Source of the DNA: Clostridia bacterium
Lineage (GTDB): Bacteria; Bacillota; Clostridia; Oscillospirales; RGIG8002
Direction: 5' to 3'
NCBI GenBank assembly: GCA_017453725.1
Contig: JAFTEJ010000004.1
Location: 711 to 64,710 of the forward strand
Length of the DNA: 64,000 bases
The notes beneath the pieces are model-generated. The model was not told the DNA's origin and searched no databases. It saw nothing but the letters and a program-made list of their open reading frames with translations. Made by a program: the position numbers and the translations under genes. Below, piece after piece: positions 5,772-59,556 of this stretch (position 1 is the stretch's first letter; each line of letters opens with the position of its first letter).

Positions 5772-5803
5772 AAACAGACCGCCGTTAAAACGGCGGTCTG
5801 TTT
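5772..5803. terminator. bidirectional rho-independent terminator
   Basis: A perfect 10-bp stem CAGACCGCCG/CGGCGGTCTG (5775-5784 / 5791-5800) with loop TTAAAA, flanked by AAA on the 5' side and TTT on the 3' side. It lies between the ligase-like gene stop and the tRNA 3' end. Confidence 0.7.
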
Positions 5804-5806
5804 GTG

Positions 5807-5883
5807 TGGTCGGAGTGACGGGACTTGAACCCACGGCCTCTTGGTCCCGAACCAAGCGCTCTACCAAACTGAGCTACACCCCG
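5807..5883 (-). tRNA. tRNA-Pro: tRNA-Pro (anticodon CGG), CCA encoded
   Basis: The reverse complement reads CGGGGUGUAGCUCAGUUUGGUAGAGCGCUUGGUUCGGGACCAAGAGGCCGUGGGUUCAAGUCCCGUCACUCCGACCA. It has a 7-bp acceptor stem, a D-loop AGCUCAGUUUGGUAGAGC, an anticodon stem CUUGG/CCAAG with loop UUCGGGA, and a T-arm GGGUUCAAGUCCC. Confidence 0.9.
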
Positions 5884-12795: not shown

Positions 12796-12833
12796 AATAT
12801 ACCTCCAAAGATAAAGTCAGGAAGGATACGCGG

Positions 12834-26215: not shown

Positions 26216-26983
26216 CTAACAACCGCCGAGTACGAAATCGGCAAAAAGCGGCAGATGATCTGACGCGCCGCGCGTGTTCTCGTCATCTACGACCGCGACG
26301 CGAAGCGAACGAACGCCGTCGGTGCGGAAGATGTGATCAACGATATTCGGAAGCGGCGCTTGGTCGGCGTCTGTGAAAACGCCGTTTTGCGTCAAAGCGC
26401 GGTATTCCGGCTTATCAGGCGTTATGTTCATATCTCCGGCGGAGATGAACGGACAACCGTATCCGGCGTTATACCGTTCTGCGGTTTCGATAAGCTCGCC
26501 TATCTGTATCAGCCGCTCCGGGGTTCTGTCGCCCGGATAGTCGGAATCGAGGTGAGTGCTCGAAACTGCGAAGCGCCTTCCGTCGGCGATGCGCTCGAAA
26601 ACCCCGACGTTGACAAGCCGCATACGGTCGCAGTTTGATACGGAATAAACGGCGACTTCACCGGCGACCGGTCTGACTTTGCGCACATTATATATAAGCG
26701 CGGTGTTGACGTAGTCTTTCTCGCCTTTGAAATCGGGGTTGAAAAACTCATATTCGCCGTAAAGCAGCTCGCGGAACGCCGCAAACCAGCCCGTGCTCGC
26801 CTCCTGAAGCCCAACGACGTCGGGAGAATAGTGTCTCAGGCACTCAACCGCGCCGGTCGGACGCTCTCCGAGCGGCGTTCCCCAGTCGTAGTCGTCCGAG
26901 TCGACGAGCAGGTTATACGACATAACGCGGATATCAGCGTCATCGCGGCTCACAAAGCTTCCGACTCTGTCGATATATGACAT
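26216..26983 (-). CDS. EEP-family hydrolase with no signal peptide and no dockerin (cytoplasmic paralogue)
   Basis: 255 aa with a GGAGGTG RBS. Motifs VMSYNLL, VGLQEA, VSSTHL, AGDMNIT and ASDHLPL are present. It is collinear with the EEP domains at 11725..12795 and 22441..26157. Confidence 0.75.
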   Translation of the reverse strand: MSYIDRVGSFVSRDDADIRVMSYNLLVDSDDYDWGTPLGERPTGAVECLRHYSPDVVGLQEASTGWFAAFRELLYGEYEFFNPDFKGEKDYVNTALIYNVRKVRPVAGEVAVYSVSNCDRMRLVNVGVFERIADGRRFAVSSTHLDSDYPGDRTPERLIQIGELIETAERYNAGYGCPFISAGDMNITPDKPEYRALTQNGVFTDADQAPLPNIVDHIFRTDGVRSLRVAVVDDENTRGASDHLPLFADFVLGGC

Positions 26984-36000: not shown

Positions 36001-37710
36001 ATATTCGGTGCCTGCCGGATTAGTCCAGTGCAGGGTACCGATCTGGCGGGCGTAGAGCTTATCGCCCATACCGCCGTATTCGCTCGCGGTGACAGGCATC
36101 TCCATGAGGTCGATCTCTGAACGCGCCATATTCATCGAATCCACGGGCATCATCCAGATTGCGGGCCACATACCGAACCCGTGCGGCATCTTCGCGCGGA
36201 TCTCCACGCGTCCGTAGCTTATCGCGTACTTACCGCTCGAGAGAATATGCGGAGCGACGGATTCATATCCGTTGTGATCTTTGTTCAGCGTTCTGAGGAC
36301 GAGATCGCCGTCCTCAAGGAAAGCGGTCTCCTCGGAATCTATATAAAGCGAGGTGTTCGTGCCGCCGAAGAAGAAACCGGTATCGGCGCGCCATATGTTG
36401 CTGTCGAGCTTGTCGCCGTCGAACTCATCGCTCCATGTCTGAATATAATCGCCGTCGTTGACCTTGCATACGACAAACTTCTTGAAGGTGTTGGACGCCG
36501 TGCCTTTCACGGTCGAGCCGGCGTAGGTCAGCTTCGCGACGCCGCGCACCTGCAGAGTAAACTCCCCTCTTGACGCCGTGAGCGCAAATTCCTGCGTCGA
36601 ATCATTGTAATCAAGCTCCCCGTAAGTGAGTATCGTCGAAGAGTTACCCATCTCCATCGCGTAACCGGTAGATTTATTAACGATTCTGAACGTCGAATTT
36701 CCCGACGGATCCGGAGTGAACTGCCAAAGCTGCTTCAGGTCGCCCTCAACTGCGCTTTCGAGCGTAAACGTCGTTGCGTTCTGTCCGTAAGTCATCGTAA
36801 CGGCCTTGGGGTCGTCGGTGCCGTAGGAGTCGACGGAATAGAGTTTGTAATATACGTTATCGATGATGCCTCCGCGGCTCGTGACGCGTTCCTCGGAATA
36901 AGGCGTACGCCCGGAAACGTCGACCGTTTCGCGATACGCGTGAAGATCTGCGACGCGCAGAACGCCCGCGCCGGAACACTCGACGCGGATATGGTTCATC
37001 AGGCCGTTGGTGTTGATTTCGGCGCCGTCGGCGTCGGGTATGAACATATAGTAAGGTATCGTCAGATACCCTTCATCAGAGACGGGAATGTCCGAAGCGG
37101 TAAGCGAGAACGACTCGCCGTCGGAGAGTTTACCGATGGTCAGAGAAAGCGTACACGGCGCGTCGGGACTTACCCAGAGGCGCAGTCCGTCGGTGTCGAA
37201 CATATCCATCCCGAAGGGAGACGCGCCGACGATCCCGTTCCCGGCGGAGTTGTCATAAACGCAATCGCCGTCGGAAGCTATCGCCAGCGACTGCTTCGCG
37301 GTCTGCGGCTTGTTCTCCGTATCGACGCTTACAACGCCGACGTTGTTCGTCATCAACGCGACGTCATCGGCGGTGATATAATCAAACGACATCAGCTGAA
37401 CGCGCTCGCTCCCCTTCATCGGAGCGAGGAGATCAACCGCGTGACAAAGCTCGTCCGCAAGCGCGAAAAGCGTTTCCGCGTCAGCGTCCGCTTCAAACAG
37501 AGCGGCTTCCGCGCGGAGAACTCTGTCGTAAAGATACTTTTTCGTCTGCTCGCTGTTGTCCTTGTAGAGAAGCGGCCGCGCGTATTCCGTAAGCTCGGCA
37601 AGCTGCGCCAGGAGCGCGGCTGTATCGCCCTCCGCGGTTATCCACGCCGAAGGAAGCAGCGACACTACCATCACAAGTATTACAAATGCGGCAATCGTTT
37701 TCTTAAGCAT
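33019..37710 (-). CDS. ~1563-aa secreted multidomain protein (paralogue B2), same architecture as B1
   Basis: The ORF is listed to 37719 (GTG), but the ATG at 37710 (MLKKTIAAF) sits 5 nt after AAGGTGG. It is collinear with 28216..32967. GH16 motif SEIDLMEMPV. Dockerin loops DADGDGVVTVSDA and DLDADGEITVADA. Confidence 0.8.
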   Translation of the reverse strand: MLKKTIAAFVILVMVVSLLPSAWITAEGDTAALLAQLAELTEYARPLLYKDNSEQTKKYLYDRVLRAEAALFEADADAETLFALADELCHAVDLLAPMKGSERVQLMSFDYITADDVALMTNNVGVVSVDTENKPQTAKQSLAIASDGDCVYDNSAGNGIVGASPFGMDMFDTDGLRLWVSPDAPCTLSLTIGKLSDGESFSLTASDIPVSDEGYLTIPYYMFIPDADGAEINTNGLMNHIRVECSGAGVLRVADLHAYRETVDVSGRTPYSEERVTSRGGIIDNVYYKLYSVDSYGTDDPKAVTMTYGQNATTFTLESAVEGDLKQLWQFTPDPSGNSTFRIVNKSTGYAMEMGNSSTILTYGELDYNDSTQEFALTASRGEFTLQVRGVAKLTYAGSTVKGTASNTFKKFVVCKVNDGDYIQTWSDEFDGDKLDSNIWRADTGFFFGGTNTSLYIDSEETAFLEDGDLVLRTLNKDHNGYESVAPHILSSGKYAISYGRVEIRAKMPHGFGMWPAIWMMPVDSMNMARSEIDLMEMPVTASEYGGMGDKLYARQIGTLHWTNPAGTEYMDKRVDIYSENYEALSNDYHTYAVELDTDQVRLYFDGALIMSLNLDDDGKKFAYGDVARYIILSSGGIEGITNAVLDPNEYYGDREMRVDYVRAYIRSEQGTDDTPDFTSEYSVVGSRGVEYLGRDSNFFMSSFPMDVSPDGTQGVMADQSGILCVYDPRTGETLQLVPTTTSYRSFITATYSPDGGKFAAGTMNGSVLIYDTSDFSKAPVRINNGATMHYCLTFTKDGGHLIAGGFNGGAQTLKNPNNSSVTKAHYIRVFNADTGALENELFIESDPLSADLSPDGTKLAVTTTSAGVFIFNTADWSEYAHFTTEHVNTVQFCRFSPDGSLLATSDEAGEVVLWSVADKNAVRRLDTVNESSVRKLAWSPDGKRIVTTSTDSAARVYSVESGRCVSLLGGFAGQIHEVAYSPDGRFVAAASLDRTMKLYYADGTYVSTLLLGSHTYSEGHISSKICFTPDSRYIYASSYSFPSCVNRWELPAETDKSALKAAIDACAGKTPALDNARKVYAMKYASAKAAAEAVAALTGEPLPAPFGAIAVSADGVAFGNSASIYRNGRLYVTVEVSRASSAFLAVKKGLDDPSIIPIDSIKLSSEDAGGGYIRHLLGLHPDEGGEYTVYLTDSEGNVSESASVFVSDVSTTRDFFYTVSDGKVTITGAKCGGESVNIPDYIDGYPVTAIGDYAFQNYGQTVLHMKLSLPRTLKSIGNYAFYECTSLEELNLPEGLESIGAYAFGRCLSLSHIDIPSSVKTVGSDAFYYARGTSYIRVGGGLANVPGYTFYMTVSNRCFIFDEGVKTISSYISYPARLLGRVYVPRSVTSINGSFAVSMLGTVKLYGYPGTYAETFAANNASFEFVPLAAPVISGVKDGGTYDLFDGPVAASWDDGHIAYLNGKTYYAGGAVTEPGEYTLKVINGYEEFTTEVSFTVVDTTPVKGDADGDGVVTVSDALLTLRAAAKLYAPTAKVTAAIDLDADGEITVADALDVLRMAVGL

Positions 37711-37752
37711 ATCAACCACCTTACAAGAAGCTATCCGGATGTCAGAGCAAGA

Positions 37753-38722: not shown

Positions 38723-41700
38723 TCAATACTCAACCTCGACCCGCTTCTCACCGCCGTCAAGAGAAACATATTCCACGTCTCTCCCGTCGACGCGTACGCC
38801 GGAACGCCCGGTACGGCGGGCGGTAATGCTCAATCTTGTGCCGTCAAGCACGGCGCTGATCTCAAAATCCCGCCATGATGACGGAACGGATGGAGCGATA
38901 TAAAGCTTTTTGCCGCGTTTTTTCAAACCGAGAAGCTCTTCAACGGCCACGCGAAAGTACCATCCGGCGGCGCCGGTATAGATAGTCCATCCTCCCCTGC
39001 CCGCCGCCTGACGCGCCGTGTAGATGTCGGCGGAAAGGAAATACGGCTCCGTCTTATAGGCTTTTTCAAAAGAGTGCGTCACAGGGCTTATCATCCCGAG
39101 AATATCGAAGCCGTCGTCGACTCTGCCGAGCCTCAGCGCCGCGGACGCAAGCCACACGGCGGCGTGGGTGTACTGCCCGCCGTTTTCTCGTATTCCGGCC
39201 GGATAGCGCTTTATATAGCCGATATTCTTCTTCACCGACTGATACGGCGGAGTAAACAGCTTGACGATGTTCCTTTCCTTATCGACGAGGTGTTTCATAG
39301 CGGTATCAACGGCGAGCTCCGCGCGGTCGCGCCGCAGACCGGCGAAGACGGAAAAACTCTGCGGCAGACTGTCGACGCAGCACTCGGAGCAGCCGGCGGC
39401 GCCGAGCGCTTCGCCGTCGTCGTGGTAGCCGCGAATATAACGATCGCTGTCCCAGCACTTTTCAAGAGCCTCCTTCAGAGAAGCGCACCTTTCTCGCAGA
39501 GTCTGAGCGAAAACACGGTCTCCCGTCGATTCCGCGACAGCGATAAATCTATCCATTACAACGCAAGCGAACATCGACAGCCACACGCTTTCTCCCTTGC
39601 CCTTTACTCCTACTCCGTTCATCCCGTCGTTCCAGTCTCCGGAGCCGAATAATAGCAATCCGTGCCGCCCGACCCTGTAGCCTCTGTTTAAGGCACGCTT
39701 ACAGTGTTCATAAACGCTCGCAAATCCGGAAACAACAGGCGAGATATATCTCTCGGTCTCGCCGGATAAAAGATTGTCACCCGATATGAAGTTGACGTTT
39801 TTCGAGAGTATTTCGTTATCATCCGTTACCGAAACATACTCGCATACGGCGTAAGGAAGCCAAAACAGATCGTCAGAGCAGCGCGTTCTGACGCCCTTGA
39901 ATCCCCCGGAAACACCCGGCGGCTTATGCCACCAGTGCAGCACGTCCCCTTCCTCAAATTGAGCGGACGCGGCTTTCAGGATATGGTATTTAGCGAGATC
40001 CGGATCGGAATACAAAAGCGCGCAGACGTCCTGAAGCTGATCCCTGAATCCGTACGCACCGGAGTTCTGAGAAAAACCGGTGCGCCCCAGAACCCTCGAA
40101 ACCTTCGCCTGATACGGAAGGTAAAAGTTGATAAGCCTGTCGAGATTTTCCGAAGGAGTTCTGATACGGATGGCGGACTCCTCCGCGTTGGCGGTATCCC
40201 GGCAGAGCGCCGGGTTTGCCGAAAACAGCCTGTGCGGATACGCGGCGCCCCTTTCGCTCAAGCCCGCGGAGAGGAAAAAGAACACTTCCTTCTTTTCTCC
40301 GGCGTCAAGCGCCACGTCGGTAACGGCCGCGGCGCAGTACTGTTCGCCCGGCGCTCTTTCCGCCTCCCACATGCCCGAAAAGAAGCTGTCTTTCCCCGTC
40401 ACGTAAACCGCGTCGCAGGAGCAGGAAAGGCATGAACGCGTACCGCCGCGGCCGTCTCTGTATCTGTTGACGGCGAACAGCAAGCCCTCGCTTTCATACG
40501 CGTACGTCATATTCTGCGACGAGGAGTCAGGCAGCGGCTCGGTATAGTAAGCAAGCCTGAGTCCGACGCGCTTTTCGGAACGGTTGCGCAGAGACACCCT
40601 CACGATTTTCACAGGAAGCTTACCGTGGACTCTGACCTCCGTTTCAGATTCAACCGCCCCGTTTTTGACATGGTATTCCGCGTACCCTTTCCCGAAACGC
40701 GCAAGGCTCCCCCGTATCAGATCCCTGTATTCCCCGTCAAACTCCGCGTAAAGCCTTTCGCCGCGGTTGTCGCTCATATAATCGTTGCTCCACGGCGTAA
40801 TCTGATTCAGCCTCGAATTTAGGTAGTAGCTGAATCCGAGCGACGAGTCGGAAACGAGCGTACCGAAAGATCTGTTCGCGAGCGGAAAACACCACGGGAG
40901 CGGACTGCTGCTTTTTTCCGAAACGGCAACGAAAGCGTCCTTTTCAAACGCACCGCCCGGAACGTATGATTCAGCACTCACCGTTTCCGCAAGCGGCTCT
41001 CCGGGAATGACCTCAAATGCTTTCGCAGCGCCCCGTTCCCCTTCGTTTTTCGTCCCGCATATCTCGCAGTATACGCTTGCCGCGATCAGCAGTTTGATTC
41101 TGTCTTCGCCGTACTTTTCCGCGTCTATCAGATACACACCGCTCTCTCCGCGTTTCATAAGCGCCTTCAAGGAAGAACATATACCGGCGTCATAAGCGCC
41201 GCCCTCGCGGAAAATAACGCACAGGTCGTATTCCGCTCCTTTGACGGCCGCGGCGCGGTGAGCGACAATATGACTTCGCGCGCGTTCGATATCGCATTCA
41301 CCGGCAATTACGCAGGTAACGATAGGTTTATCGCCTGATACCGACATGCTCCAGAGTTCATTTACGCCGAGCGCGTTTGTTTTAACGGCTTCGGCGGTCG
41401 GGATGGTTTTAGGACACTCAAAATACAGGCGCGGAATTATGGAATTGAGAAGTCTGTTCTCCTCCGCTCCGCAATTGATCGACGCCGACATATTCCCCGC
41501 CGTTTCCCACGAAGACTTCATCATACCGTACGCGCTCTGCTTCCTGATAAGCATAAAACGCGCGAGCGCCTCGTCGCAATTCCTTCCCGCGCACTGAATG
41601 AAAACGGCGGTTTTGTTTTCGCCTCCGCGAAGTGAAAACCTTGTCCTGATCGCGGCGCATGGTATCACCGGAGTGCCGCAGGACGACGAAAACTCCTTAT

Positions 41701-44700
41701 CAAAAGCGCCTCCGAGCGAAAACACACCCTCCGCCTTATTCAGCACCTCGCTTCTGTCGGTCTCAAAACCGAACGCGATACCGGCGTCCGCGAATCCGTA
41801 AGCGACGCACGCCTCCTGCCCGACGTCTCCCCGCCTCCACACAAGAAGGCACCTCTCCGCTTCTCTGTATTCGCACATAATGAACAAGTCCGAAAACGCC
41901 GGGTGCGCGGAATGGTCTTTGAAATGCGCAAGCACGGGCTCCGCATAAAACAGCACCTCCGCGTCTTTCCTGCGGCGCTCTGTGTTTCCGATTTTCACAA
42001 CGCGTATCTCCGCGGGTATCCGACCGTGCACGCTGACGCTCATAGCGGCTTCAAGCCCGCCTTGCACGGCGGTAAAAACCGCGGACGCAGCCGTAAACTC
42101 AGCTCTTCTTAAAGCGCTGCCGCGGACCGGGTCCGCCGTGACGGAAAACGCCGGCTTCTTCTCCTCCTTCAGAAAAACGTAAACGCCGGCCGGATCGGTG
42201 CGCAAATCGCGCTTGCGCCTGCTCAGATCGATGCAGTTCCACATCGAAAAGCCGCTACCGCCGTCTGTTATGACGGTCGAAAACTCACCGTTTGAAAGAA
42301 GAAGCGCGCGCGGGTACGCGGGATCGAACTCGCGGCAGACCGTGCCTTCCTCGGGAAGCCTCCTCGTCTTGAATTTCACATCGGTCGTCACTACGCCTTT
42401 ATACAGCGCCGCCCCGTCGTAAACCGCTTCTTCAAGCAGTTTCTGCGCCGTTCGCATGTCGGCGTCTCTTATGAAGCGCTTTTGCATAACGTTGTCAAGC
42501 AGACAGTTTACTATTGAGACGAGCGACATCCCCATATGGTGAGCCATATAGCTTTTAACTACCGCGAATCCGCCTCCGGTGCGCGACGCCGTAAAGTCGA
42601 TAGCCTCGTACAGACCGAACTCTCCGTTAATGCCGAGATTGATAAGCCTTCTCAGGTTGGCGATCGCGCCGGCGGGCGCGAACGGCAGCGCGAGAAAGGT
42701 CGAATACGGCGAAACGACCAGCTCGTCATCCAGCCCGCGCTTCAACCCCAGCTTCTGCACACCGAAGGCCTTGTACCGGTAGTTCTGACCTATATCCAAA
42801 GAGCAGAACCCGCTTTCCGAAACTCCCCACGGCAGCTTCAAGGGATCCGTTCGCTTTTTCTGGCAATACAGCGCGTATTTCAGCGCTTCATCTGTAAGCG
42901 AATCGGAAACCACCGGAAGAAGCAGATGCGGCATAAAATACTCAAACATCGTGCCGGTCCAGGATAGCGGTCCGACGTAGCCGTTTGAGCCCGCGAACAG
43001 TCTGCCGAGCGTTCCCCAGTGTCGTTTATCCGCAACCTTTTTTGCTATCGCGTAATAGCTCGTCATTCTCGCTTCGCTCATCAGAATATCATACATATTG
43101 TTTCCGAAGGAGCCGCTCGAAACGTCATATCCGATATAAAACAGCCTCCGGCGCTCGTTATACAGCGCCGAAAGATCCGCATTGTTGAGTATTTCCCGGC
43201 AGGCTTCCGCGACCTCCTTCAGTCCGGCGCATTCCCATGCGTATTCCGCTACGCCTTCCTTCAGCGCCGTAAGGCAGCACAAAAGATTTCCGCTGTCAAC
43301 TGTTGAAACGTATTCAGGCTCAAGCGGCGCAAGAGTCTTCAGGTCGTACCAGTTATAAAGATTCCCGTTCCACGTATCGAGCTTTTTAATAACGGCAATC
43401 GAATCGGAAAGCCGCGCGCAAAGCTCGGCGCTGTCTATAAATCCGAGATCTCTCGCGGCAAGCGCGCATATAAGATATAGCCCGATATTCGTCGGCGACG
43501 TGCGCATCGCGACCCGATACGGCATATATTGCACGTTATCGGGCGGCAGATGATTCGTCTCAGCGGTCACGTAATTATCAAAAAAACGCCACATAGAAGC
43601 CGCAAAAGAGTATAACAGTTCCTCGTCATCCTCATCAAGCGAGGCTTTTTTGCCGACATAAGGGCGGGACATTTCGCAGAAAACCGCCGGCGCTATGACC
43701 CACAACGCGCCGAGCACAGCGAGAGACAGTATCCCGCTGAACAAACAAGCGACCCCGAGCACCGCCGTGAAGCGAAAATACAGATAGTAATCCGTTACCG
43801 AGTTTTTCCCGGCGTTTTCCGCCTCCGCCGCCGTCACCCATTCGAGCATATTGCGGCGCGTCACCAGCACGCGCCACACAACCTTGCAAAGCTCAATAAA
43901 GGAAACCGCCGCGAGCTGCGGGAGCAGCATAACGTTCACCGCGATTCTCAGACATCCGCCGAGAAACGCGGTAACGCCGCGCGTTATATACCTCCTGAAC
44001 ACAATACGCGGCTTGAAGAGGCTCCTGACCGTCGCGACGGTCTCGCCGGCCGAAGCGGACGCGAGAACAAGAGCCAAAAGCGGCAGCCGGTAACCGCCCG
44101 TAGCGAACGCACACGCCGCAGCTGACGCAAAAACAAAAACGGGATTGAGCGCACGTCTGATATTATCAAACAGCTTGAACCTGTCGGAATAAGAGAAGGC
44201 GTTCTTCACGACCTTCCCGTTTGCGTTTTTCCTCTTCTCGCGCAGGAAGAAAGCGTTCTGATAATCGCCTCTTATCCAGCGCCCCTGTCGTACCAGCCAC
44301 GCCTTCACAGTCGTCGGGAAGGAATCGGAAAGCTCCGTTTCGGAAACCGAACAGGCTCGGAGCACGCACCCTTCGATAATATCGTGACTGAGAACGCGGT
44401 TATCCGGCAGCGCCCCGTCAAGGACTGCCGAAAAAGCCTTCACGTCTATCAGCCCCTTGCCGGTAAAAAGCCCGTCGCCGAAAACGTCGCGGTAAAGATC
44501 GGCGCCCGCGCCGCCGTAGCTGTGCAGCCCTCCGGCGCCGGCGAAAACGCGCGAAAACAAGCTCCGCGATGATGATTCGATATCGTTCGTCAGCCTCGGA
44601 ACCGCTATTCCGTAACCGCGCACGACAGCGCCTCCCTCAACTACAGCCTTATTCATCGGATGCTCGAGGACCGCTGTCAGTTCGGCGGCGGCGTTTATCG

Positions 44701-46159
44701 AAAGCGTAGTGTCCGCGTCGAGCGCGAGCAGGTAATCGCTGCCGACGACGCCTCTCAGGTCGCCCGTAATCGAAGCAAAATCGCATTCGCCGGTATTCAT
44801 ATACCTGATAAGCTCGTTTATCGCTCCCCTTTTGCGCTCTCGCCCCATATATTTGCCTTCGCTTGCCGAAAAGCTCCTCTTGCGCACCAACGCGAAGAAG
44901 CCCCCGCCGAACTCGTCGTTGAGCTTCCGTATCTCTTTTTCAAGTACAGAAAGAAGATGAGCGTCCTCGGGCTTTGACAGAGTATCGCTCTCCTTAAAAT
45001 CAGCCAGAAGACCGCACCGCTCCACCCTTCCCGAAAGCCTCACCTGCGTCAGGTTTTTGGCAAGCTTTTTGATCTGATCCGAAGACGTTATAAGACAAGA
45101 AATCGCGACAGTCGCGCATGTATCCGGAGACAGCTTCGCGGGGTCGAGCGAGCAAACGAATCTTCTTTTCACAACAGCGGAGGCGATGTTTTCCTGCACC
45201 GCGTACCATAAGCTCCATAACGGAACCGCCGTCAGCGCCGAAAGCATCACATTACCCGTCAGAACCGCAATAAGCGCGAACAAGACGAGCGGCGCCGAAT
45301 AGTAGAACGCCGGAAATAATTTCCCGACGCTCTTTTTATGCTCGGGGATGATATATTTTCCTATGTGCTTATCGAAGCGCGTCCCGCCCGCGTTTTCCGC
45401 GCTTTTCAGAGCTCTTTCAGCAAACTCCGCTTCGCTTATCCCATCACGTCGCGCGCCGAGTTCGACGCAATACCTGTAATACCTTTTCGTTTCCTCGCTC
45501 ATATCCGGATAAACGCCGGATGGATCGCGCGTCAGAAGCGCCTCAGAAACGCTCAGCCTCTCTATGCACAGCGACATATCGGCACCGGACATAACGCGCA
45601 GAGTTCCGATAAGCCGCGACATTTTTCCGGCGTCGCCTCCGGACTCGGATTCGATACTTTCACACTCCTTCGCCAGCGCGTCGACGACCGCCGCCGTAAG
45701 CATATCCTTGAATACCGAAAGCTCGGTGTTTGAAAGCGTATACCCCTCCTGGACGCCCGACAGGAAGGCTTCAAGTTTCTCGGCATCCACCGCGCCGACC
45801 TCGGTTAACAAAGCGCGAGCGATACAGTAAACAATCGGCATTTTATCGGGAGACGCCGGGAGCCTTTGCTTGCTCTTCAGTCCTGCCGCCGCCGTCCTGC
45901 CTTCTCTGTCGATCATGTAATAGTTATCACAAAGCCATTCACGCGCAGCGGCGTTTTTTGATGGCGGGAGCGCGGCGAGAGAAGCCTTCTTGCAGGCCGC
46001 TTCAATGCGTTTCATATTATTTGAAATCGACTTTATAACAGCGCGAGTTCCGACAGTCACGCCCTCGGCTTTGATAATACACAGCTTTTTTCCCGCAGTA
46101 TAAACACCGCTGTAATCCATTTTTCTCAACACGCTCCGTATCCGTTCAGAATCACTCAA
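38723..46159 (-). CDS. 2478-aa cyclic beta-1,2-glucan synthase-like protein (membrane GT domain + glucoamylase-like linker + GH94-like phosphorylase domain)
   Basis: The listed TTG start at 46159 lacks an RBS; an alternative ATG is at 46120. GT motifs LALDADTTL and RQGRWIRGD are flanked by hydrophobic segments. The mid-region carries MRTSPTNIGLYL. C-terminal GH94-type motifs: DVLHWWH, GSGDWNDGMN, GGQYTHAAVW. Confidence 0.8.
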   Translation of the reverse strand: MSDSERIRSVLRKMDYSGVYTAGKKLCIIKAEGVTVGTRAVIKSISNNMKRIEAACKKASLAALPPSKNAAAREWLCDNYYMIDREGRTAAAGLKSKQRLPASPDKMPIVYCIARALLTEVGAVDAEKLEAFLSGVQEGYTLSNTELSVFKDMLTAAVVDALAKECESIESESGGDAGKMSRLIGTLRVMSGADMSLCIERLSVSEALLTRDPSGVYPDMSEETKRYYRYCVELGARRDGISEAEFAERALKSAENAGGTRFDKHIGKYIIPEHKKSVGKLFPAFYYSAPLVLFALIAVLTGNVMLSALTAVPLWSLWYAVQENIASAVVKRRFVCSLDPAKLSPDTCATVAISCLITSSDQIKKLAKNLTQVRLSGRVERCGLLADFKESDTLSKPEDAHLLSVLEKEIRKLNDEFGGGFFALVRKRSFSASEGKYMGRERKRGAINELIRYMNTGECDFASITGDLRGVVGSDYLLALDADTTLSINAAAELTAVLEHPMNKAVVEGGAVVRGYGIAVPRLTNDIESSSRSLFSRVFAGAGGLHSYGGAGADLYRDVFGDGLFTGKGLIDVKAFSAVLDGALPDNRVLSHDIIEGCVLRACSVSETELSDSFPTTVKAWLVRQGRWIRGDYQNAFFLREKRKNANGKVVKNAFSYSDRFKLFDNIRRALNPVFVFASAAACAFATGGYRLPLLALVLASASAGETVATVRSLFKPRIVFRRYITRGVTAFLGGCLRIAVNVMLLPQLAAVSFIELCKVVWRVLVTRRNMLEWVTAAEAENAGKNSVTDYYLYFRFTAVLGVACLFSGILSLAVLGALWVIAPAVFCEMSRPYVGKKASLDEDDEELLYSFAASMWRFFDNYVTAETNHLPPDNVQYMPYRVAMRTSPTNIGLYLICALAARDLGFIDSAELCARLSDSIAVIKKLDTWNGNLYNWYDLKTLAPLEPEYVSTVDSGNLLCCLTALKEGVAEYAWECAGLKEVAEACREILNNADLSALYNERRRLFYIGYDVSSGSFGNNMYDILMSEARMTSYYAIAKKVADKRHWGTLGRLFAGSNGYVGPLSWTGTMFEYFMPHLLLPVVSDSLTDEALKYALYCQKKRTDPLKLPWGVSESGFCSLDIGQNYRYKAFGVQKLGLKRGLDDELVVSPYSTFLALPFAPAGAIANLRRLINLGINGEFGLYEAIDFTASRTGGGFAVVKSYMAHHMGMSLVSIVNCLLDNVMQKRFIRDADMRTAQKLLEEAVYDGAALYKGVVTTDVKFKTRRLPEEGTVCREFDPAYPRALLLSNGEFSTVITDGGSGFSMWNCIDLSRRKRDLRTDPAGVYVFLKEEKKPAFSVTADPVRGSALRRAEFTAASAVFTAVQGGLEAAMSVSVHGRIPAEIRVVKIGNTERRRKDAEVLFYAEPVLAHFKDHSAHPAFSDLFIMCEYREAERCLLVWRRGDVGQEACVAYGFADAGIAFGFETDRSEVLNKAEGVFSLGGAFDKEFSSSCGTPVIPCAAIRTRFSLRGGENKTAVFIQCAGRNCDEALARFMLIRKQSAYGMMKSSWETAGNMSASINCGAEENRLLNSIIPRLYFECPKTIPTAEAVKTNALGVNELWSMSVSGDKPIVTCVIAGECDIERARSHIVAHRAAAVKGAEYDLCVIFREGGAYDAGICSSLKALMKRGESGVYLIDAEKYGEDRIKLLIAASVYCEICGTKNEGERGAAKAFEVIPGEPLAETVSAESYVPGGAFEKDAFVAVSEKSSSPLPWCFPLANRSFGTLVSDSSLGFSYYLNSRLNQITPWSNDYMSDNRGERLYAEFDGEYRDLIRGSLARFGKGYAEYHVKNGAVESETEVRVHGKLPVKIVRVSLRNRSEKRVGLRLAYYTEPLPDSSSQNMTYAYESEGLLFAVNRYRDGRGGTRSCLSCSCDAVYVTGKDSFFSGMWEAERAPGEQYCAAAVTDVALDAGEKKEVFFFLSAGLSERGAAYPHRLFSANPALCRDTANAEESAIRIRTPSENLDRLINFYLPYQAKVSRVLGRTGFSQNSGAYGFRDQLQDVCALLYSDPDLAKYHILKAASAQFEEGDVLHWWHKPPGVSGGFKGVRTRCSDDLFWLPYAVCEYVSVTDDNEILSKNVNFISGDNLLSGETERYISPVVSGFASVYEHCKRALNRGYRVGRHGLLLFGSGDWNDGMNGVGVKGKGESVWLSMFACVVMDRFIAVAESTGDRVFAQTLRERCASLKEALEKCWDSDRYIRGYHDDGEALGAAGCSECCVDSLPQSFSVFAGLRRDRAELAVDTAMKHLVDKERNIVKLFTPPYQSVKKNIGYIKRYPAGIRENGGQYTHAAVWLASAALRLGRVDDGFDILGMISPVTHSFEKAYKTEPYFLSADIYTARQAAGRGGWTIYTGAAGWYFRVAVEELLGLKKRGKKLYIAPSVPSSWRDFEISAVLDGTRLSITARRTGRSGVRVDGRDVEYVSLDGGEKRVEVEY

Positions 46160-46248
46160 ACAGAGAGTTATGCATTGAGATTATTTTGTGAAATAATCGC
46201 CGAATAATACCGATGTTCGTAAGCGAAGGAAAAGAAGACAGAATTCTA

Positions 46249-46277
46249 TTGACATATTTTCGCAAAAAGTGTATAAT
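46249..46277 (+). promoter_or_regulatory. near-consensus sigma-A promoter of the SPT-like/SDR operon
   Basis: TTGACA (46249-46254), a 17-nt spacer ending in TG, TATAAT (46272-46277), 28 nt upstream of the ATG at 46306. Confidence 0.6.
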
Positions 46278-46305
46278 CAACGCATAAATTCACGGAGGTC
46301 ACGCT

Positions 46306-47490
46306 ATGCCGTTATTCAAAAAGTGCAGGGATTTCCATTTAGTCAAAGACATCAAGGAGATGGGCATATACCCTTACTTCCACGAGCTCGAATCAAAGCA
46401 GGATATCGAAGTAATGATGGAAGGCAAGCGCCGTATTATGCTCGGTTCCAACAACTACCTCGGACTCACCGTACATCCCGAGGTCATAGAGGCGGGCGTA
46501 AAAGCACTTGAAAAATACGGCTCCGGATGCTCCGGTTCCCGCTTCCTGAACGGCACCCTCGATTTGCACAATCAGCTCGAACGCGCTCTCGCCGAGTTCA
46601 TCGGCAAGGAGGAGTGCGTCACTTTCTCCACCGGGTTCCAGTCCAATCTCGGCATTATTTCCGCGATCGCCGGCAAGGGCGACTACATATTCAACGACCG
46701 CGAAAACCACGCCAGCATTTACGACGCCTGCAAGCTCAGCTACGCCGAGACGATCAGATACAAGCACAACGACATGGCGAGTCTCGAGAAGAAGCTCAGC
46801 GAAGTCCCGCTTGAAGCAGGAAAGCTGATCGTTACCGACGGCGTTTTCAGCATGAGCGGAGATATGTGCAAGCTCCCGGAGATCGTTGCGCTCGCCGAAA
46901 AATACAAGGCCCGCGTTATGGTCGACGACGCGCACGGACTCGGCGTTATCGGCGAAGGCGGCCGCGGCACGGCGAGCTACTTCGGACTTACGGACAAGGT
47001 CGATATTATTATGGGCACGTTCAGCAAATCGCTGGCGAGCCTCGGCGGATATATGGCGGCAAGCAGCGAGGTCTGCGAATTCGTAAGACACAGCTCCCGC
47101 CCCTTCATTTTCAGCGCGTCCATACCCCCGGCGTGCTGCGCGACAGCGATAAAGGCGCTTGAAATAATGAAGCGCGAGCCCGAACGCGTCAAGCGCCTCG
47201 GCGACCTCGCGGAGTATCTTCGCAACGGTATGAAGAAGCGCGGCCTTGCGATACGCGACGCGGACAACAAGCGCGTACCGATAGTCCCCTTCTACACCTA
47301 TGAACAGATCCGCACGCTGACGATAGGCAAGATACTCTTCGACGAGGGCGTTTACGTCAACCCCGTTCTGCCGCCGGCGACAACTCCCACGGAGTGTCTG
47401 CTCCGCACCAGCCTTATGGCGACGCATAACGAGGAGATAATCGACGAAGCGCTCGATATTATAAAGAGAGTGGTCGAAGAAAATGAGTAA
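46306..47490 (+). CDS. alpha-oxoamine synthase, serine-palmitoyltransferase-like (PLP-dependent)
   Basis: 394 aa. Motifs IYPYFHELES, LGSNNYLGL, GSRFLNGT, DGVFSMSGD, PLP-lysine motif GTFSKSLASLGGY, and a C-terminal YVNPVLPPATTPTECLLRTSLMATHN that is closer to SPT than to Kbl/BioF as I remember them. Confidence 0.8.
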   Translation: MPLFKKCRDFHLVKDIKEMGIYPYFHELESKQDIEVMMEGKRRIMLGSNNYLGLTVHPEVIEAGVKALEKYGSGCSGSRFLNGTLDLHNQLERALAEFIGKEECVTFSTGFQSNLGIISAIAGKGDYIFNDRENHASIYDACKLSYAETIRYKHNDMASLEKKLSEVPLEAGKLIVTDGVFSMSGDMCKLPEIVALAEKYKARVMVDDAHGLGVIGEGGRGTASYFGLTDKVDIIMGTFSKSLASLGGYMAASSEVCEFVRHSSRPFIFSASIPPACCATAIKALEIMKREPERVKRLGDLAEYLRNGMKKRGLAIRDADNKRVPIVPFYTYEQIRTLTIGKILFDEGVYVNPVLPPATTPTECLLRTSLMATHNEEIIDEALDIIKRVVEENE

Positions 47491-48289
47491 CGTAAAGGTC
47501 GCCGCCGTCACCGGCGCTTCGAGCGGGATAGGCCTTTCCGCCGCGAAGATGTTCGCCGACCGCGGATACAATGTTTACTGCCTCAGCCGCACCGCTCCGA
47601 ACGACGGGCGCGTTACGCACATACCGACCGACGTATCCGACGAAAACGCCGTTACCGCCGCTTTTGAACGCATAAAAAGCGAAGCGGGACGCCTCGACGT
47701 TCTCGTCAACAACGCGGGGTTCGGAATTTCCGGCGCTACCGAGCTGACCGATACCGCCGAAGCAAAGCGCCTTTTCGACGTCAACTTCTTCGGGCAGTTC
47801 ATCTGCGCTAAACACGCCGCCCCCCTGCTGCGCGAAACGCGCGGCGCGATCGTCAACGTAAGCTCCGCGGCGGCGATATTCTCGATTCCATATCAGGCTT
47901 TCTATTCAGCCTCAAAATCCGCGATAAACTCCCTCACACTCGCGATGAGAAGCGAGCTCAAGCCCTTCGGCGTCCGAGTCAGCGCCGTTATGCCCGGCGA
48001 CGTCCGCACCGGCTTCACCGCCGCGAGGATAAAGGACGACGGCGAAAAAACGCTCTATTCCGATACGGTCAAGGCTTCCGTCGCCGTTATGGAAAAGGAC
48101 GAGATAAACGGTATGCCGCCGGAAAAGGTCGCGAGAATCATCGTGAAACTCGCCGAGAAGCGCGACCCGAAGCCCCTGACCGTCGCCGGCGGCAAATACA
48201 AGGTCTTCGCCCTGCTGAACAAGCTCCTGCCGACCGGGCTCGTCAATTCCATAGTCGGGTCGATGTATATAAAAAGCGAAAAGAAATAA
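47483..48289 (+). CDS. classical short-chain dehydrogenase/reductase (candidate 3-keto-amine reductase)
   Basis: 268 aa. TGASSGIG cofactor motif, NNAG, and the catalytic S...YSASK triad. Its ATG lies 8 nt inside the upstream ORF (AATGAGTAA). Confidence 0.8.
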   Translation: MSNVKVAAVTGASSGIGLSAAKMFADRGYNVYCLSRTAPNDGRVTHIPTDVSDENAVTAAFERIKSEAGRLDVLVNNAGFGISGATELTDTAEAKRLFDVNFFGQFICAKHAAPLLRETRGAIVNVSSAAAIFSIPYQAFYSASKSAINSLTLAMRSELKPFGVRVSAVMPGDVRTGFTAARIKDDGEKTLYSDTVKASVAVMEKDEINGMPPEKVARIIVKLAEKRDPKPLTVAGGKYKVFALLNKLLPTGLVNSIVGSMYIKSEKK

Positions 48290-48300
48290 TATCGCCAAAC

Positions 48301-48325
48301 GGAGACCGCCAAAGCCGCGGTCTCC
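48301..48325 (+). terminator. hairpin after the SDR gene
   Basis: A 9-bp stem GGAGACCGC/GCGGTCTCC with a 7-nt loop. The T-tract is weak, so it may be only a partial terminator. Confidence 0.4.
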
Positions 48326-48352
48326 GACTTACTATGCGAAAGAGGCAGCCGA

Positions 48353-50803
48353 ATGTCGTTAACTATCCACAGTCCGACTTGTGAATACCGAATACACGCG
48401 CTCGGCGTCGGAACTCCGAACCCTGTCATGGGGTGGAAACTTTCCGGCGAAAACGGAGCGCGGCAGACCGCCTACCGCGTCGAGGTCTTTGACGAAGGCG
48501 GCAACGCCGTTTGGGATTCCGGCAAGGTCGCCTCCGACCGGCAGTTCGGAATCGAAATCAACCCCGAAACGCCGCTAAAACCGATGAGCGAATACAGATT
48601 CACAGTGACGGTGTGGGACGAAAACGGCGACCCGTCGCAGCCCGCCGAATCGCGCTTTGTGACAGGATTTTTCAAGTCGCACCAATGGCGCGGAGACTGG
48701 CTTCGCATCTGGCACTACGGCGGCGTTCACTTCTTCAGACGCGAATTCATGCTTGAGAACGTATCCGATATACGCTATGCTTACGCTTTCATCGGCGCTT
48801 TCGGCGACAAGGGCAACTCCTGCGTTCCGTTCCTCAACGGCGCGAGGATCGGCGACGCACCGCTTTTCCCCGGCGCTTCCGAATACTTCACCGCGCAGTA
48901 CGTTTGCCGCGACGTAAAGCCCTTGCTCATGAACGGCGCGAACGCGGTCGGGCTTATGCTCGCGCGGACAGCCTCGATGATACTAAAAATCAAATACCAC
49001 GACGGCTCCGAGCTCTTCATAGACTGCAAACGCGACGAATGGAAAGCAAAGTCCGGCGGCGGATACAGGCTCGGCTATGAGGATAGCATGCAGCACGGCA
49101 AATTCGAGGAGTTCGACGCACGCGAAGCGTTCCGCGGCTGGGCGGAGCCCGGCTTCGACGATACCCTCTGGGAACAGGCCGGCGAAGCGCGCCCGATAAT
49201 CGACCTCGCTCCGCTGTTTCTGCGTCCGCAGCTTTGCGCGGCGAAGACTGGCGGTATTGCTCAGCCCGTTAAAGTATCCGCCGTCAGCGGCGGCTATATC
49301 GCCGATTTCGGCAATAATCTCGCAGGCTTCGCGGCGATTCGTATGAAAGGAAAAGCCGGAGAGACAGTCACGCTCCGCTACGCCGAAAAGCTCGACGAAA
49401 ACGGCGCCCCCGTCTTCCCCGACCGGCGCGGCGCTTATAACAAATACACCTTCGCGACTGACGAAAGCGAAGAGTATTCGCCGCTCTTTATGTATACCGG
49501 ATTCCGCTACGTAGGCGTGTCCGGCAACGCCGAGCTCGAATCGATAACGGCGTATCCGATACACAGCGACGTTATTAACTCCTCCGGCTTCGACTGCTCC
49601 GACGACGCGATCCGCGCAATATACAATACCGCGAGAAGAAGCTTTCTTTCAAACCTCGTCAACATCCCCACCGACTGCCCCGAGCGCGAACGCCGCGGCT
49701 GGACAGCCGACGCGTACGCGGTATGCGAAGCGGAATGTACGACCTTTGACGCTCACACATTCTACGCGCAATGGCTCGAAAGCATGCGAGACTGCCGGCG
49801 CGGGAACGGCTGGATACCGGTGGAGCTTCCGCTTTCCACCGACGACTGTATCGACGTAAACTGGCCGGCGGCGGCAGTATTTATTCCGTTCACGCTTTAT
49901 CGGCAATACGGCGACCTGCGTCTCGTCAAAAGGCATATGCCTATGATGAAGGCGTGGCTGGCGCTGCTTGAGGAGCTATGCGACGAGAATTATGAGATAG
50001 CGGAATGCTATATGAGCTACAAGGATTGGATCGCGGCGGAACCCGCGAGCCCGCGCTTCCTTTCGGCGCTTTACTTTTTCAGATGCGCTCATCTGCTCGC
50101 CCGGCTTGCCGAAGCCGTCGGAGAAACAAACGACGCCGCGTACTGCTCCGCGCTCGCGCAAAGGATACGCGACGCGATAAACGCAAACCACCTCACCGTC
50201 CGCGGCGCGGAAGCGTATTACGATAACGGAAGCCAGAGCTCAAACGCGCACGCGCTATTCTTCGGCGTCTGCCCGGAGGAGCTGCGCCCGGCGGTCACCG
50301 CGCACCTCGTCAACGACATCGAGCAAAAGCAAACCTCCACCTGCGGCTTTATGGGCACGGCGTGCATACTCGAAGCGCTCTCGGAAAACGGCAGAAGCGA
50401 CGTCGCCTACCGCCTGATAAAAAACCGCAGCCGGGGCGGCTGGCTCTACCTCATCGAGAACTGCGGCGCGACGACCTTCCCCGAGCATTTCAACGGCGGC
50501 GGCTCGCAAAACCACGCCTTCCTCGGAAGCGCGCCCGCGCTGTGGGTATATAAGCATCTTGTCGGGATCTCCCCGCTGCTGCCGGGTTACAAGCGCGTTC
50601 GCGTCGAGCCGTATATCCCCGATGATATTGAATGCGCCTCTGCGACGACGGATACCCTGTACGGCGAGATTTCGGCGGGCTGGAAAAAGGAAAACGGCGC
50701 GGTAAAGCTCTCGGTCACACTGCCGCCGAACGTTTCGGGAACAGTCGTTTTCGGCGGGCATTCTTACGAGATCGGCTCCGGAGCTCACAGCTTTTCGGCA
50801 TAG
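48353..50803 (+). CDS. GH78 alpha-L-rhamnosidase (intracellular, no signal peptide)
   Basis: 816 aa. An N-terminal bacterial rhamnosidase domain pattern, NIPTDCPERERRGWTADAY (the GH78 catalytic-region motif), and a six-hairpin C-terminal region. Confidence 0.8.
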   Translation: MSLTIHSPTCEYRIHALGVGTPNPVMGWKLSGENGARQTAYRVEVFDEGGNAVWDSGKVASDRQFGIEINPETPLKPMSEYRFTVTVWDENGDPSQPAESRFVTGFFKSHQWRGDWLRIWHYGGVHFFRREFMLENVSDIRYAYAFIGAFGDKGNSCVPFLNGARIGDAPLFPGASEYFTAQYVCRDVKPLLMNGANAVGLMLARTASMILKIKYHDGSELFIDCKRDEWKAKSGGGYRLGYEDSMQHGKFEEFDAREAFRGWAEPGFDDTLWEQAGEARPIIDLAPLFLRPQLCAAKTGGIAQPVKVSAVSGGYIADFGNNLAGFAAIRMKGKAGETVTLRYAEKLDENGAPVFPDRRGAYNKYTFATDESEEYSPLFMYTGFRYVGVSGNAELESITAYPIHSDVINSSGFDCSDDAIRAIYNTARRSFLSNLVNIPTDCPERERRGWTADAYAVCEAECTTFDAHTFYAQWLESMRDCRRGNGWIPVELPLSTDDCIDVNWPAAAVFIPFTLYRQYGDLRLVKRHMPMMKAWLALLEELCDENYEIAECYMSYKDWIAAEPASPRFLSALYFFRCAHLLARLAEAVGETNDAAYCSALAQRIRDAINANHLTVRGAEAYYDNGSQSSNAHALFFGVCPEELRPAVTAHLVNDIEQKQTSTCGFMGTACILEALSENGRSDVAYRLIKNRSRGGWLYLIENCGATTFPEHFNGGGSQNHAFLGSAPALWVYKHLVGISPLLPGYKRVRVEPYIPDDIECASATTDTLYGEISAGWKKENGAVKLSVTLPPNVSGTVVFGGHSYEIGSGAHSFSA

Positions 50804-50876: not shown

Positions 50877-51584
50877 TTATTTCGCTATTCTCTTTATGAC
50901 CTCGCCCGCCATTATCAGGCCTGCGACCGACGGTACGAACGAAACGCTCGCGGGAGCGGGTCTGCCGCTTTCGCGCTTCTCGCCGTCCGCATCCGGAGCC
51001 TTCGGCTCCTCTTTCGAGTATACGACGGGCAGCGATTTTATGCCGCGCTTTTTCAGCTCATAGCGCATAACGCGGGCGAGCGGACAGACGGAGGTCTTGT
51101 AGATATCCGCGACCTCGAACCGCGTGGGGTCGAGCTTGTTTCCGGCGCCCATACAGCTTATGACCGGAACTCCGGCGGCGTTCGCGCGGCAGATAAGCTC
51201 GATTTTCGACGAGACGGTATCGATGCAGTCGAGAATGAAATCATAGCGGTCGAGCCGGAAGGAATCCGCGTTTTCGGCCGAGTAAAACGCGGTCACGGCC
51301 TCGATCTCCGCCTCGGCGGAAACGCGTTCGGCGCGTTCCTTCATAACCTCGGCTTTGCTTCTGCCTATCGTTCCGCGGTCGGCGACGAGCTGGCGGTTTA
51401 CGTTTGATTCGGCGACGGCGTCGCCGTCAACGAAGGTGAGTCTGCCGACTCCCGCGCGGACGAGCGCCTCGGCGGCGAAGGAGCCTACCCCGCCGACGCC
51501 GAACACGGCGACGGAAGCGTTATTCAGCTTTTTCACCGCGTCGTCGCCGAGCAGCGAACGCGTCCTTATCTGCCAGTCGCTCAT
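50877..51584 (-). CDS. tcdA: tRNA threonylcarbamoyladenosine dehydratase (ThiF/E1-like)
   Basis: 235 aa. VAVFGVGGVGSFAAEALVRAGVGRLTFVDGDAVAESNVNRQ and DCIDTVSSK are as in TcdA/CsdL. Its ATG overlaps the upstream stop (ATGA). Confidence 0.8.
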   Translation of the reverse strand: MSDWQIRTRSLLGDDAVKKLNNASVAVFGVGGVGSFAAEALVRAGVGRLTFVDGDAVAESNVNRQLVADRGTIGRSKAEVMKERAERVSAEAEIEAVTAFYSAENADSFRLDRYDFILDCIDTVSSKIELICRANAAGVPVISCMGAGNKLDPTRFEVADIYKTSVCPLARVMRYELKKRGIKSLPVVYSKEEPKAPDADGEKRESGRPAPASVSFVPSVAGLIMAGEVIKRIAK

Positions 51585-58176: not shown

Positions 58177-59556
58177 TCAGAATTCAACGTGAGCGCCCGC
58201 TTCCGCCGCCTTCAGCAGCAGAGCGCATTCAAGGCGCTTTTTCTGCATAAAGCACGCCTGCTCGTTCGGCGAGTCTATGCCGCCGCCGTAGAAGACGTTA
58301 CCCGCGGCGCATCCGCCGCTGCAGTTGTATTTTGCGAAGCAGCCGGCGCACTTGGGTTTCGACATTATGCTCGACTGCGCGAATATCCTGCGGATGTCGT
58401 CGCGGACAACGCCCTCGTCGAGCGAGCCTATTCTGTATTCCTCCATACCGACGAACTGGTGGCAGGGATAAATGCTTCCGTCGGGGGCGATCGCGGCGTA
58501 TTCGTTGCCCGCGCCGCAGCCTTTCAGCCGCTTGACCGCGCAGGGCCCGCCGTCGAGGTCGACCATAAAGTGGAAGAAGTTGACTTTTTTGCCTTCGGCG
58601 CGGAGCTTAAGGATGATATTCGTCAGCCTCTCGTATTCCTCCGCTATGCGCGGCAGATCCTCGTCGCGAAGCGCGTAGCTTTTATCGGCCGGCGCGGTTA
58701 CCGGCTCGATGGATATTTCATCGAAGCCGAGCCCGTATATGTGCTCGAAGTCGGCGGCGAAGTCGAGGTTTTCGCGCGTAAACGTACCGCGCAGATAGTA
58801 GCTCTTATCGGGGCCGCGCTTTTCAAGCAGCTTTTTGAACTTCGGCACTATGACGTCGTAGGAGCCGGAGCCGTCAACGCATTTGCGCATTCTGTCGTTG
58901 ACAATGCGCCTTCCGTCGAGCGAAAGCACGACGTTGCTCATCTCCGCGTTTATGAAGTCGATGTTCTCATCGTTGAGCAGCAGACCGTTTGTGGTCAGTG
59001 TGAAGCGGAAGTTCTTCCCCCGCTCCTTTTCGACGCTTCTGGCGTACGCGACGGTCTCCCTGACGGTCTTCATAGCCATCGTTGGCTCGCCGCCGAAGAA
59101 GTCGATCTCGATATTCCTCATACCCTTTGAGGCGGCGGTTATGAAGTCTATCGACTTTCTGCCGGTCTCGGGCGACATTATGCCCCGGGCGCCGTGATAG
59201 TCGCCCTGCGAAGCGAAGCAGTAGCCGCAGCGCAGATTGCAGTCGTGCGCGACGTGCAGGCATACGGCCTTTATCGGCATAAGCGAGGAATACACCGGCG
59301 CGGGTATCTGCTCCGGCAAAGTGTAAAGCATATCGTCGGCGGCAAGCTCCGCCAGCTCCGCGACCGCCTCGCGCACGGCGGCTTCGCCGAAGGACGCGCC
59401 GAGCTTTTCCGCGGCTTCATCCGCCGTCGGAAGCCTGTCCGGATACGCGGAAAGCACGGCGTATGAAACGTCGTCCGGCAGATGCACCGCTCCGCTCTCA
59501 ACGTCGAGCGCGATATTAAGTCCGTTTTGTCTGAAAGTGTGTACCAATTCTATCAC
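58177..59556 (-). CDS. scfB: radical SAM/SPASM thioether-forming SCIFF peptide maturase
   Basis: 459 aa with a GTG start. The CNLRCGYC radical-SAM cluster motif, C-terminal SPASM cysteines (CGAGNEY...CHQF...CAGCFAKYNCSGGCAA), and the N-terminus HTFRQNGLNIALDVESGAVH are all typical of SCIFF maturases. It lies directly downstream of the SCIFF peptide. Confidence 0.85.
   Translation of the reverse strand: MIELVHTFRQNGLNIALDVESGAVHLPDDVSYAVLSAYPDRLPTADEAAEKLGASFGEAAVREAVAELAELAADDMLYTLPEQIPAPVYSSLMPIKAVCLHVAHDCNLRCGYCFASQGDYHGARGIMSPETGRKSIDFITAASKGMRNIEIDFFGGEPTMAMKTVRETVAYARSVEKERGKNFRFTLTTNGLLLNDENIDFINAEMSNVVLSLDGRRIVNDRMRKCVDGSGSYDVIVPKFKKLLEKRGPDKSYYLRGTFTRENLDFAADFEHIYGLGFDEISIEPVTAPADKSYALRDEDLPRIAEEYERLTNIILKLRAEGKKVNFFHFMVDLDGGPCAVKRLKGCGAGNEYAAIAPDGSIYPCHQFVGMEEYRIGSLDEGVVRDDIRRIFAQSSIMSKPKCAGCFAKYNCSGGCAAGNVFYGGGIDSPNEQACFMQKKRLECALLLKAAEAGAHVEF

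Follow-up and report, generated by a model that had tools for sequence, protein, structure and literature searches.

Organization of the locus

The stretch of DNA analysed here (64,000 nucleotides, positions 711 to 64,710 of contig JAFTEJ010000004.1 in the Clostridia bacterium assembly GCA_017453725.1, called the window in what follows) contains a gene for an alpha-oxoamine synthase (AOS) resembling serine palmitoyltransferase (SPT), whose end overlaps the start of a gene for a short-chain dehydrogenase/reductase (SDR). The two genes, their flanking signals and the other features of the window are listed in Table 1. An initial annotation, made from the sequence alone, had described the pair as a unit for condensation followed by 3-keto reduction, delimited by a promoter and a downstream hairpin. 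The overlap that it reported between the synthase stop and the reductase start is present, and we infer from it that translation of the two genes is coupled; small overlaps of the same or similar size (-8, -4) recur in many related loci.

In the syntenic locus of a Clostridia metagenome-assembled genome (MAG) from water-buffalo rumen (L029), both promoter hexamers and the GGAGG of the ribosome-binding site are identical to those of the window, while the spacer and the upstream DNA have diverged, a pattern that we take as the footprint of a working promoter. The hairpin behind the SDR gene is stable (dG -22.3 kcal/mol, z = -3.1 against shuffled sequences) and is conserved in part in L029, with a tail richer in T behind it, but the terminator scan did not call it and it is not a canonical terminator. 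A gene for a GH78 rhamnosidase begins on the same strand only 64 nt past the SDR stop, so that the 3' boundary of the two-gene unit is soft and read-through from the SDR gene into the rhamnosidase gene is possible. An Rfam scan of positions 45800-48700 revealed no significant family and no riboswitch, the sole match being a chance CRISPR-repeat (E 0.51). We rejected a 392-aa open reading frame (ORF) antisense to the SPT-like gene (46393-47571, minus strand) as a shadow ORF that does not represent a gene; antisense ORFs recur in related loci because the SPT-like gene itself is conserved.

Table 1. Position, strand and description of the features in the window
Feature	Position	Strand	Description
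Endonuclease/exonuclease/phosphatase (EEP) family proteins (three)	11725-12795, 22441-26157, 26216-26983	-	
Paralogous ORFs (four)	12834-17549, 17601-22355, 28216-32967, 33019-37719	-	~1570-1584 aa; GH16 + WD40 beta-propeller + BspA-type LRR each
Giant protein	38723-46159	-	2478 aa; GH94 catalytic and supersandwich domains plus a region like glucoamylase; divergent from the operon
Sigma-70-type promoter	46249-46277	+	TTGACA, 17-nt spacer, TATAAT; 12/12 consensus match
Ribosome-binding site	46294-46298	+	GGAGG; 7 nt 5' of the ATG of the SPT-like gene
SPT-like AOS	46306-47490	+	394 aa; pyridoxal 5'-phosphate (PLP) lysine Lys241
Overlap of the two genes	47483-47490	+	8 nt, ATGAGTAA; SDR start codon within the end of the SPT-like gene
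Classical NADPH-type SDR	47483-48289	+	268 aa; putative 3-ketosphinganine reductase
Hairpin 3' of the SDR stop	48300-48326	+	10-bp stem, 7-nt loop, no U-tract
ThiF/TcdA-like gene	50877-51584	-	between rhamnosidase and GH92 genes
SCIFF thioether-forming radical SAM maturase	58177-59556	-	606 bits; curated cut-off 425

Relationship of the synthase to known alpha-oxoamine synthases

We compared the AOS with curated NCBIfam models that carry equivalog cut-offs and with the sequences of PDB structures. The best NCBIfam model was SerpalmtaseCFB (NF047600, CFB-type SPT; 549.3 bits), followed by SPT of the beta-proteobacterial type (401 bits), Kbl (NF005394; 381 bits, cut-off 460), BioF (TIGR00858; 374 bits, cut-off 426), SPT of the alpha-proteobacterial type (350 bits), a second Kbl model (TIGR01822; 309 bits, cut-off 493) and CqsA (212 bits). 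The PDB sequences gave a similar picture: Sphingobacterium multivorum SPT (SmSPT, 3a2b) scored 424 bits, Sphingomonas SPTs 303-309, Thermus AOS and Kbl enzymes 236-276, Alistipes SulA (7u7h) 236, CFAT (28eh) 229, E. coli BioF 192 and CqsA structures 127. SmSPT itself matches any other solved AOS with at most 290 bits, so that the window protein is the closest relative of SmSPT among all those compared. Its identity is 49.6% to SmSPT, 42.5% to SpSPT, 36.7% to Kbl and 30.2% to BioF. The motifs on which the initial annotation had based its SPT assignment (GSRFLNGT, GTFSKSLASLGGY and YVNPVLPPATTPTECLLRTSLMATHN) are all found in the AOS, and the Sphingomonas string with which it had compared the last of them matches PDB 2jg2 exactly. 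The CqsA scores are among the weakest of the AOS matches and make it extremely improbable that the pair comprises a CqsA/LqsA-like synthase of an alpha-hydroxyketone or aminoketone signal and a subsequent reductase, even though the logic of an AOS followed by a dehydrogenase is also found in CAI-1 synthesis.

Relatives were collected by a scan of GTDB species representatives, and we used the best 80 of the 204 stretches found to encode them. The window and 56 loci of 61% identity or more form a set of 57 loci; the remaining 24 are more distant and of the CFB type. The 56 loci belong to MAGs of Clostridia (Christensenellales, Oscillospiraceae, Acutalibacteraceae, Clostridium sp. CAG:138 and others), but also of Izemoplasmatales, "Bacillales UBA" and rumen Paludibacteraceae. 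In a neighbour-joining tree (a distance method; 83 sequences, 100 bootstraps, with E. coli Kbl and BioF as the only outgroups) the AOS falls into a "Bacillota-type" clade with 99% support, which is joined, again with 99% support, by the CFB-type clade that contains SmSPT. All SPTs, including those of Sphingomonas, are separated from E. coli Kbl and BioF with 93% support. The AOS groups with proven SPTs, in line with its assignment in the initial annotation.

Residues known from the crystal structure of SmSPT (PMC10196870) and from SulA (PMC9304779) were mapped onto the window protein. Of the 18 active-site residues that PMC10196870 lists for SmSPT, 16 are identical in the window protein, the exceptions being Ala79 (replaced by Ser) and Met271 (replaced by Ile), and all 18 positions, including the two exceptions, are invariant across the Bacillota-type clade. 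The positions that match SmSPT and do not vary in the clade comprise Asn49, Tyr51, Gly77, Ser78, His135, Ser182, Asp207, Ala209, His210, Thr238, Ser240, Lys241 (the PLP lysine) and Phe269 in the numbering of the window protein. The catalytic set of the AOS family is likewise invariant: Lys241, the stacking residue His135, Asp207 and His210 (contacting the pyridine N1 and O3') and the carboxylate-binding Arg367, which lies at the conserved AOS arginine position (Arg376 of SulA, PMC9304779). Residues in contact with the serine side chain or forming the wall for the long acyl chain are kept (Asn49, Gly77, Ser78, Ser240, Tyr22, Tyr24, Phe25, Phe80, Leu81 and Phe269), and the wall residues Tyr22, Tyr24 and Phe25 (Tyr25, Tyr27 and Phe28 of SmSPT) are invariant in the clade; their equivalents are Phe, Glu and Glu in Kbl, and Leu, Arg and Arg in BioF.

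The mapping of SulA bears on the suggestion of the initial annotation that the pair might serve the synthesis of capnine-like sulfonolipids; the two enzymes would then be a cysteate acyltransferase and a 3-ketocapnine reductase. SulA and CFAT are relatives of SPT with the same AOS fold, an almost identical active site and the same order of condensation and 3-keto reduction, and several SDRs reduce 3-ketocapnine (PMC9304779, PMC11211663). A single residue is reported to distinguish cysteate acyltransferases from SPTs, namely Lys281 of SulA, at whose position Spt has Ala (PMC9304779). The window protein has Ala271 here, and Ala is found in all 57 members of the clade; in E. coli the residue is Asn in Kbl and Thr in BioF. 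The absence of the diagnostic lysine speaks against the sulfonolipid alternative; moreover, the PDB scores of SulA and CFAT lie far under that of SmSPT and there is no cysteate synthase gene nearby. We therefore consider capnine a very unlikely product.

Another reading takes the AOS for a Kbl that acts with an SDR-type threonine dehydrogenase in threonine catabolism, or for a BioF engaged in biotin synthesis. In the kbl-tdh operon of E. coli, too, an AOS gene precedes that of a dehydrogenase, and public annotations name relatives of the window protein 8-amino-7-oxononanoate synthase. However, the scores for the Kbl and BioF models are some 170 bits below that for SPT and fail to reach the models' own cut-offs, the tree places the clade apart from both E. 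coli enzymes, and the residues of the acyl wall and at the discriminator position are not the same. As a zinc-dependent MDR enzyme that works in the catabolic direction, Tdh is unlike the partner of the window AOS, an SDR with an NADPH-type, biosynthetic signature. Finally, no biotin gene (bioA, bioB, bioD) and no tdh occurs within the 64-kb window. This reading is highly improbable, and on the criteria of scores, residues and tree the synthase is classified as SPT-like, not as BioF, Kbl or SulA.

A further alternative is that the pair carries out the same chemistry with other substrates and makes a non-canonical amino-alcohol lipid, for instance a base like 1-deoxysphinganine that derives from alanine or glycine, or one whose chain has an unusual length or branching. 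In favour of this, the clade is sister to the characterised CFB-type SPTs but distinct from them, with about 50% identity and scores below the equivalog cut-off, and Ala79 of SmSPT, which makes a water-mediated contact to the substrate side chain, is invariably Ser in it. Proven SPTs, however, already differ from one another at this position, with Ala in S. multivorum, Asn in S. paucimobilis and Thr in S. wittichii, and the contacts of SmSPT to the serine hydroxyl (Asn52, Gly80, Ser243 and Lys244) are all conserved. We regard such a deviation in substrate as unlikely.

The putative reductase

The SDR contains the family motifs TGASSGIG, Ser128, Tyr141 and Lys145, all invariant among its orthologues (Pfam adh_short, 161 bits). 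Arg36, directly after beta-strand 2, is nearly invariant as well, and by the established cofactor rules for SDRs it would be a signature of the NADP(H) type. The best NCBIfam match is the KdsR model NF049977 (218.3 bits), which is covered from position 3 to 267 of 267, in keeping with the initial proposal of 3-keto reduction after condensation. The same model matches 49 of the 50 SDRs encoded next to SPT-like genes (see below) at E <= 1e-30, with the best E-value of any family among them. A PDB sequence search with the SDR returned generic SDR relatives only. The AlphaFold model (pLDDT 90.9) gave the top Foldseek TM-scores, 0.85-0.88, to human 17beta-HSD1, the other matches being generic SDRs; the likeness of the model to 17beta-HSD1, an NADP(H)-dependent SDR with lipid substrates, fits the proposed 3-keto reductase function but does not discriminate it from others.

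Conservation and apparent transfer of the gene pair

An SDR gene adjoins the SPT-like gene in 50 of the 57 loci, a pairing far beyond chance. It lies directly downstream on the same strand in 47 of them (often with an overlap of 4 or 8 nt) and divergently upstream in two loci from Clostridiaceae; in the remaining locus (L033) the SDR is not orthologous and its gene is found 304 nt downstream. None of the 24 more distant loci (from Cloacimonadota, Flavobacteriales, Prevotellaceae and others) has an SDR gene beside the SPT gene. Clustering of the ORFs within ~6 kb of the 57 loci identified the SPT and SDR families as the only common ones, with no other conserved gene, and the loci that lack an adjacent SDR gene have unrelated neighbours (ABC transporter, transglutaminase-like proteins, radical SAM, LexA). 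In one such Clostridia locus (L038) a gene for a PlsC-type acyltransferase (4674-5849, minus strand) is divergent from the SPT-like gene; its product could act as an N- or O-acylating partner.

The lineage nearest to the window and L029 (L001, L002 and L083-L087) has, directly after the SPT-SDR pair, a gene for a 598-aa AMP-binding enzyme (12117-13913, plus strand, in L083-L087), the best matches of which are models of long-chain-fatty-acid-CoA ligases. This gene is absent from the window, but its presence next to the pair fits the need of the predicted condensation for an activated long-chain acyl donor. The exact SPT protein of this lineage (variant P0014) is recorded in 2,298 blocks of the assembly collection, some of them from pig gut samples.

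Six loci in rumen MAGs of Paludibacteraceae/Bacteroidales (L032, L039, L041, L043, L045 and L049) carry the Bacillota-type pair. The SPTs of Paludibacteraceae nest within the Clostridia clade and were placed outside it in none of the 100 bootstraps. Their SDRs form one group (98% support) among the Clostridia SDRs, in a tree that broadly mirrors that of the SPTs, the Paludibacteraceae group included. Since Paludibacteraceae are nested in both gene trees, the pair appears to have moved as a unit across phyla, from Bacillota into Bacteroidota.

Comparison of the window with L029 revealed that the SPT-like protein is the most conserved in the neighbourhood (96% amino-acid identity), followed by the SDR (87%), while the flanking proteins are 67-82% identical. 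Of the 196 nucleotide differences between the two SPT-like genes, 173 are at third codon positions. To judge from these comparisons, both the SPT-like and the SDR gene are under strong purifying selection.

Comparison with known systems and proposed pathway

Among known systems the CFB-type SPTs (S. multivorum 3a2b and 8guh; Bacteroides/Prevotella) are closest to the synthase: they are AOS enzymes of the soluble homodimer type with ~394 aa, share the residues that contact PLP and serine and line the acyl chain over a full-length identity of ~50%, and form the sister clade. The clade of the window nevertheless differs from them in being separate, well supported and mainly from Bacillota, in its two substitutions in the active site, and in its frequent pairing with an SDR gene. 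The reductase is comparable to KdsR of Bacteroides thetaiotaomicron (BT_0972), also a classical SDR of ~267 aa, whose model it matches from end to end and better than that of any other family. In Bacteroidota, however, the genes for the reductases are scattered instead of lying beside that of the condensing enzyme (PMC11211663), while in the window the two genes overlap. The proteobacterial spt-acp-acs-bcerS-cerR cluster of Caulobacter and Sphingomonas shares with our locus an SPT homologue (41-43% identity to the Sphingomonas enzymes) and, in the single sister lineage described above, a fatty-acid-CoA-ligase-like gene beside the pair, but no gene for ACP (acyl carrier protein), bCerS or CerR is conserved near pairs of the window type. 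In the Caulobacter route acylation precedes reduction (PMC11087976), whereas the order of SPT followed by KDSR is one of two routes proposed for Bacteroidota (PMC10865984). As the window reductase is a classical SDR that best matches KdsR, the order of steps resembles that of SPT and then KDSR in eukaryotes and as proposed for Bacteroides, rather than one that begins with acylation (PMC10865984, PMC11087976).

We propose, with a probability that we estimate at about 75%, that the two-gene operon performs the first two steps of sphingoid-base synthesis. In the first, the PLP-dependent synthase would join L-serine and a long-chain acyl thioester (acyl-CoA or acyl-ACP) with loss of CO2 to give 3-ketosphinganine, and in the second the coupled SDR of the NADPH type would reduce the 3-keto group. 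The likely product is sphinganine (dihydrosphingosine), the backbone of sphingolipids. Genes for the later steps, N-acylation and addition of a head group, are not found near the pair. The choice of serine, the length and carrier of the acyl chain, the use of NADPH and the identity of the product are predicted from the sequence relationships described above.

Several points weigh against this proposal. Both proteins fall short of the curated cut-offs of their best models, the AOS with 549 bits against 640 for NF047600 and the SDR with 218 bits against 400 for NF049977, and the next model, a generic SDR one, scores only slightly lower for the SDR (201 bits). The clade has no biochemically characterised member, and all hosts found are uncultured MAGs. 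SPTs also take alanine and glycine at low efficiency (PMC10196870), so that the specificity for the amino acid cannot be fixed from sequence. The tree contains no SulA sequence, and SulA was judged by the Lys281 discriminator and the PDB bit scores. A search within ~6 kb in the 57 loci revealed no conserved partner such as a ceramide synthase, an ACP or a lipid kinase. One tentative reading, less likely than not, is that the pair is a horizontally mobile, self-contained two-gene cassette by which monoderm and wall-less Bacillota, among them abundant uncultured Clostridia and Izemoplasmatales of gut and rumen, could produce free sphingoid bases, and which has moved into rumen Paludibacteraceae. 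On this reading, as no known ceramide synthase travels with the two genes, their product would be a free or unusually modified long-chain base, or else a new enzyme of N-acylation would have to exist.

The initial annotation considered a case from Firmicutes to be notable, and our literature searches indeed found no report of SPT or of sphingolipid synthesis in Clostridia or Firmicutes. Acholeplasma axanthum probably makes ceramide phosphoglycerol. Relatives of the two proteins are named only as generic PLP aminotransferase and SDR by NCBI, and one relative is an 8-amino-7-oxononanoate synthase in a JGI record; with such generic or BioF-type names, current annotation misses the SPT-SDR genes. 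We rate the proposed function as one already known, the first two steps of sphingoid-base synthesis, in what would be a new phylum and a new coupled-operon arrangement. Gut-bacterial sphingolipids influence host immunity and lipid metabolism, and those of the gut have been attributed to Bacteroidota (e.g. PMC10865984). If our proposal is true, widespread Firmicutes would be a second, unrecognised source of sphingoid lipids in gut and rumen. The pair is common to dozens of uncultured Firmicutes from these habitats and is a compact, two-gene target for heterologous expression.

Host and other genes of the window

Other products encoded in the window include both subunits of dipicolinate synthase, A and B, of which B scores above its cut-off, an SpoVK-like AAA protein and many dockerin-bearing proteins. 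A placement in Clostridia follows from the sporulation genes together with the SCIFF maturase, and by its gene content the host is a spore-forming organism of this class, in agreement with the Clostridium-like genome of the initial annotation.

A type I dockerin is present in at least two of the four paralogues that combine GH16, WD40 and BspA-type LRR domains, an unusual architecture for proteins of the cellulosome type. Two of the three EEP proteins have dockerins and one additionally has six CBM4_9 modules; the EEP superfamily includes sphingomyelinases. The ThiF/TcdA-like gene appears to be absent from L029, where the syntenic place is a gap of only ~340 nt. The giant GH94 protein, on the other side of the operon, is syntenic in L029 with 67% amino-acid identity.

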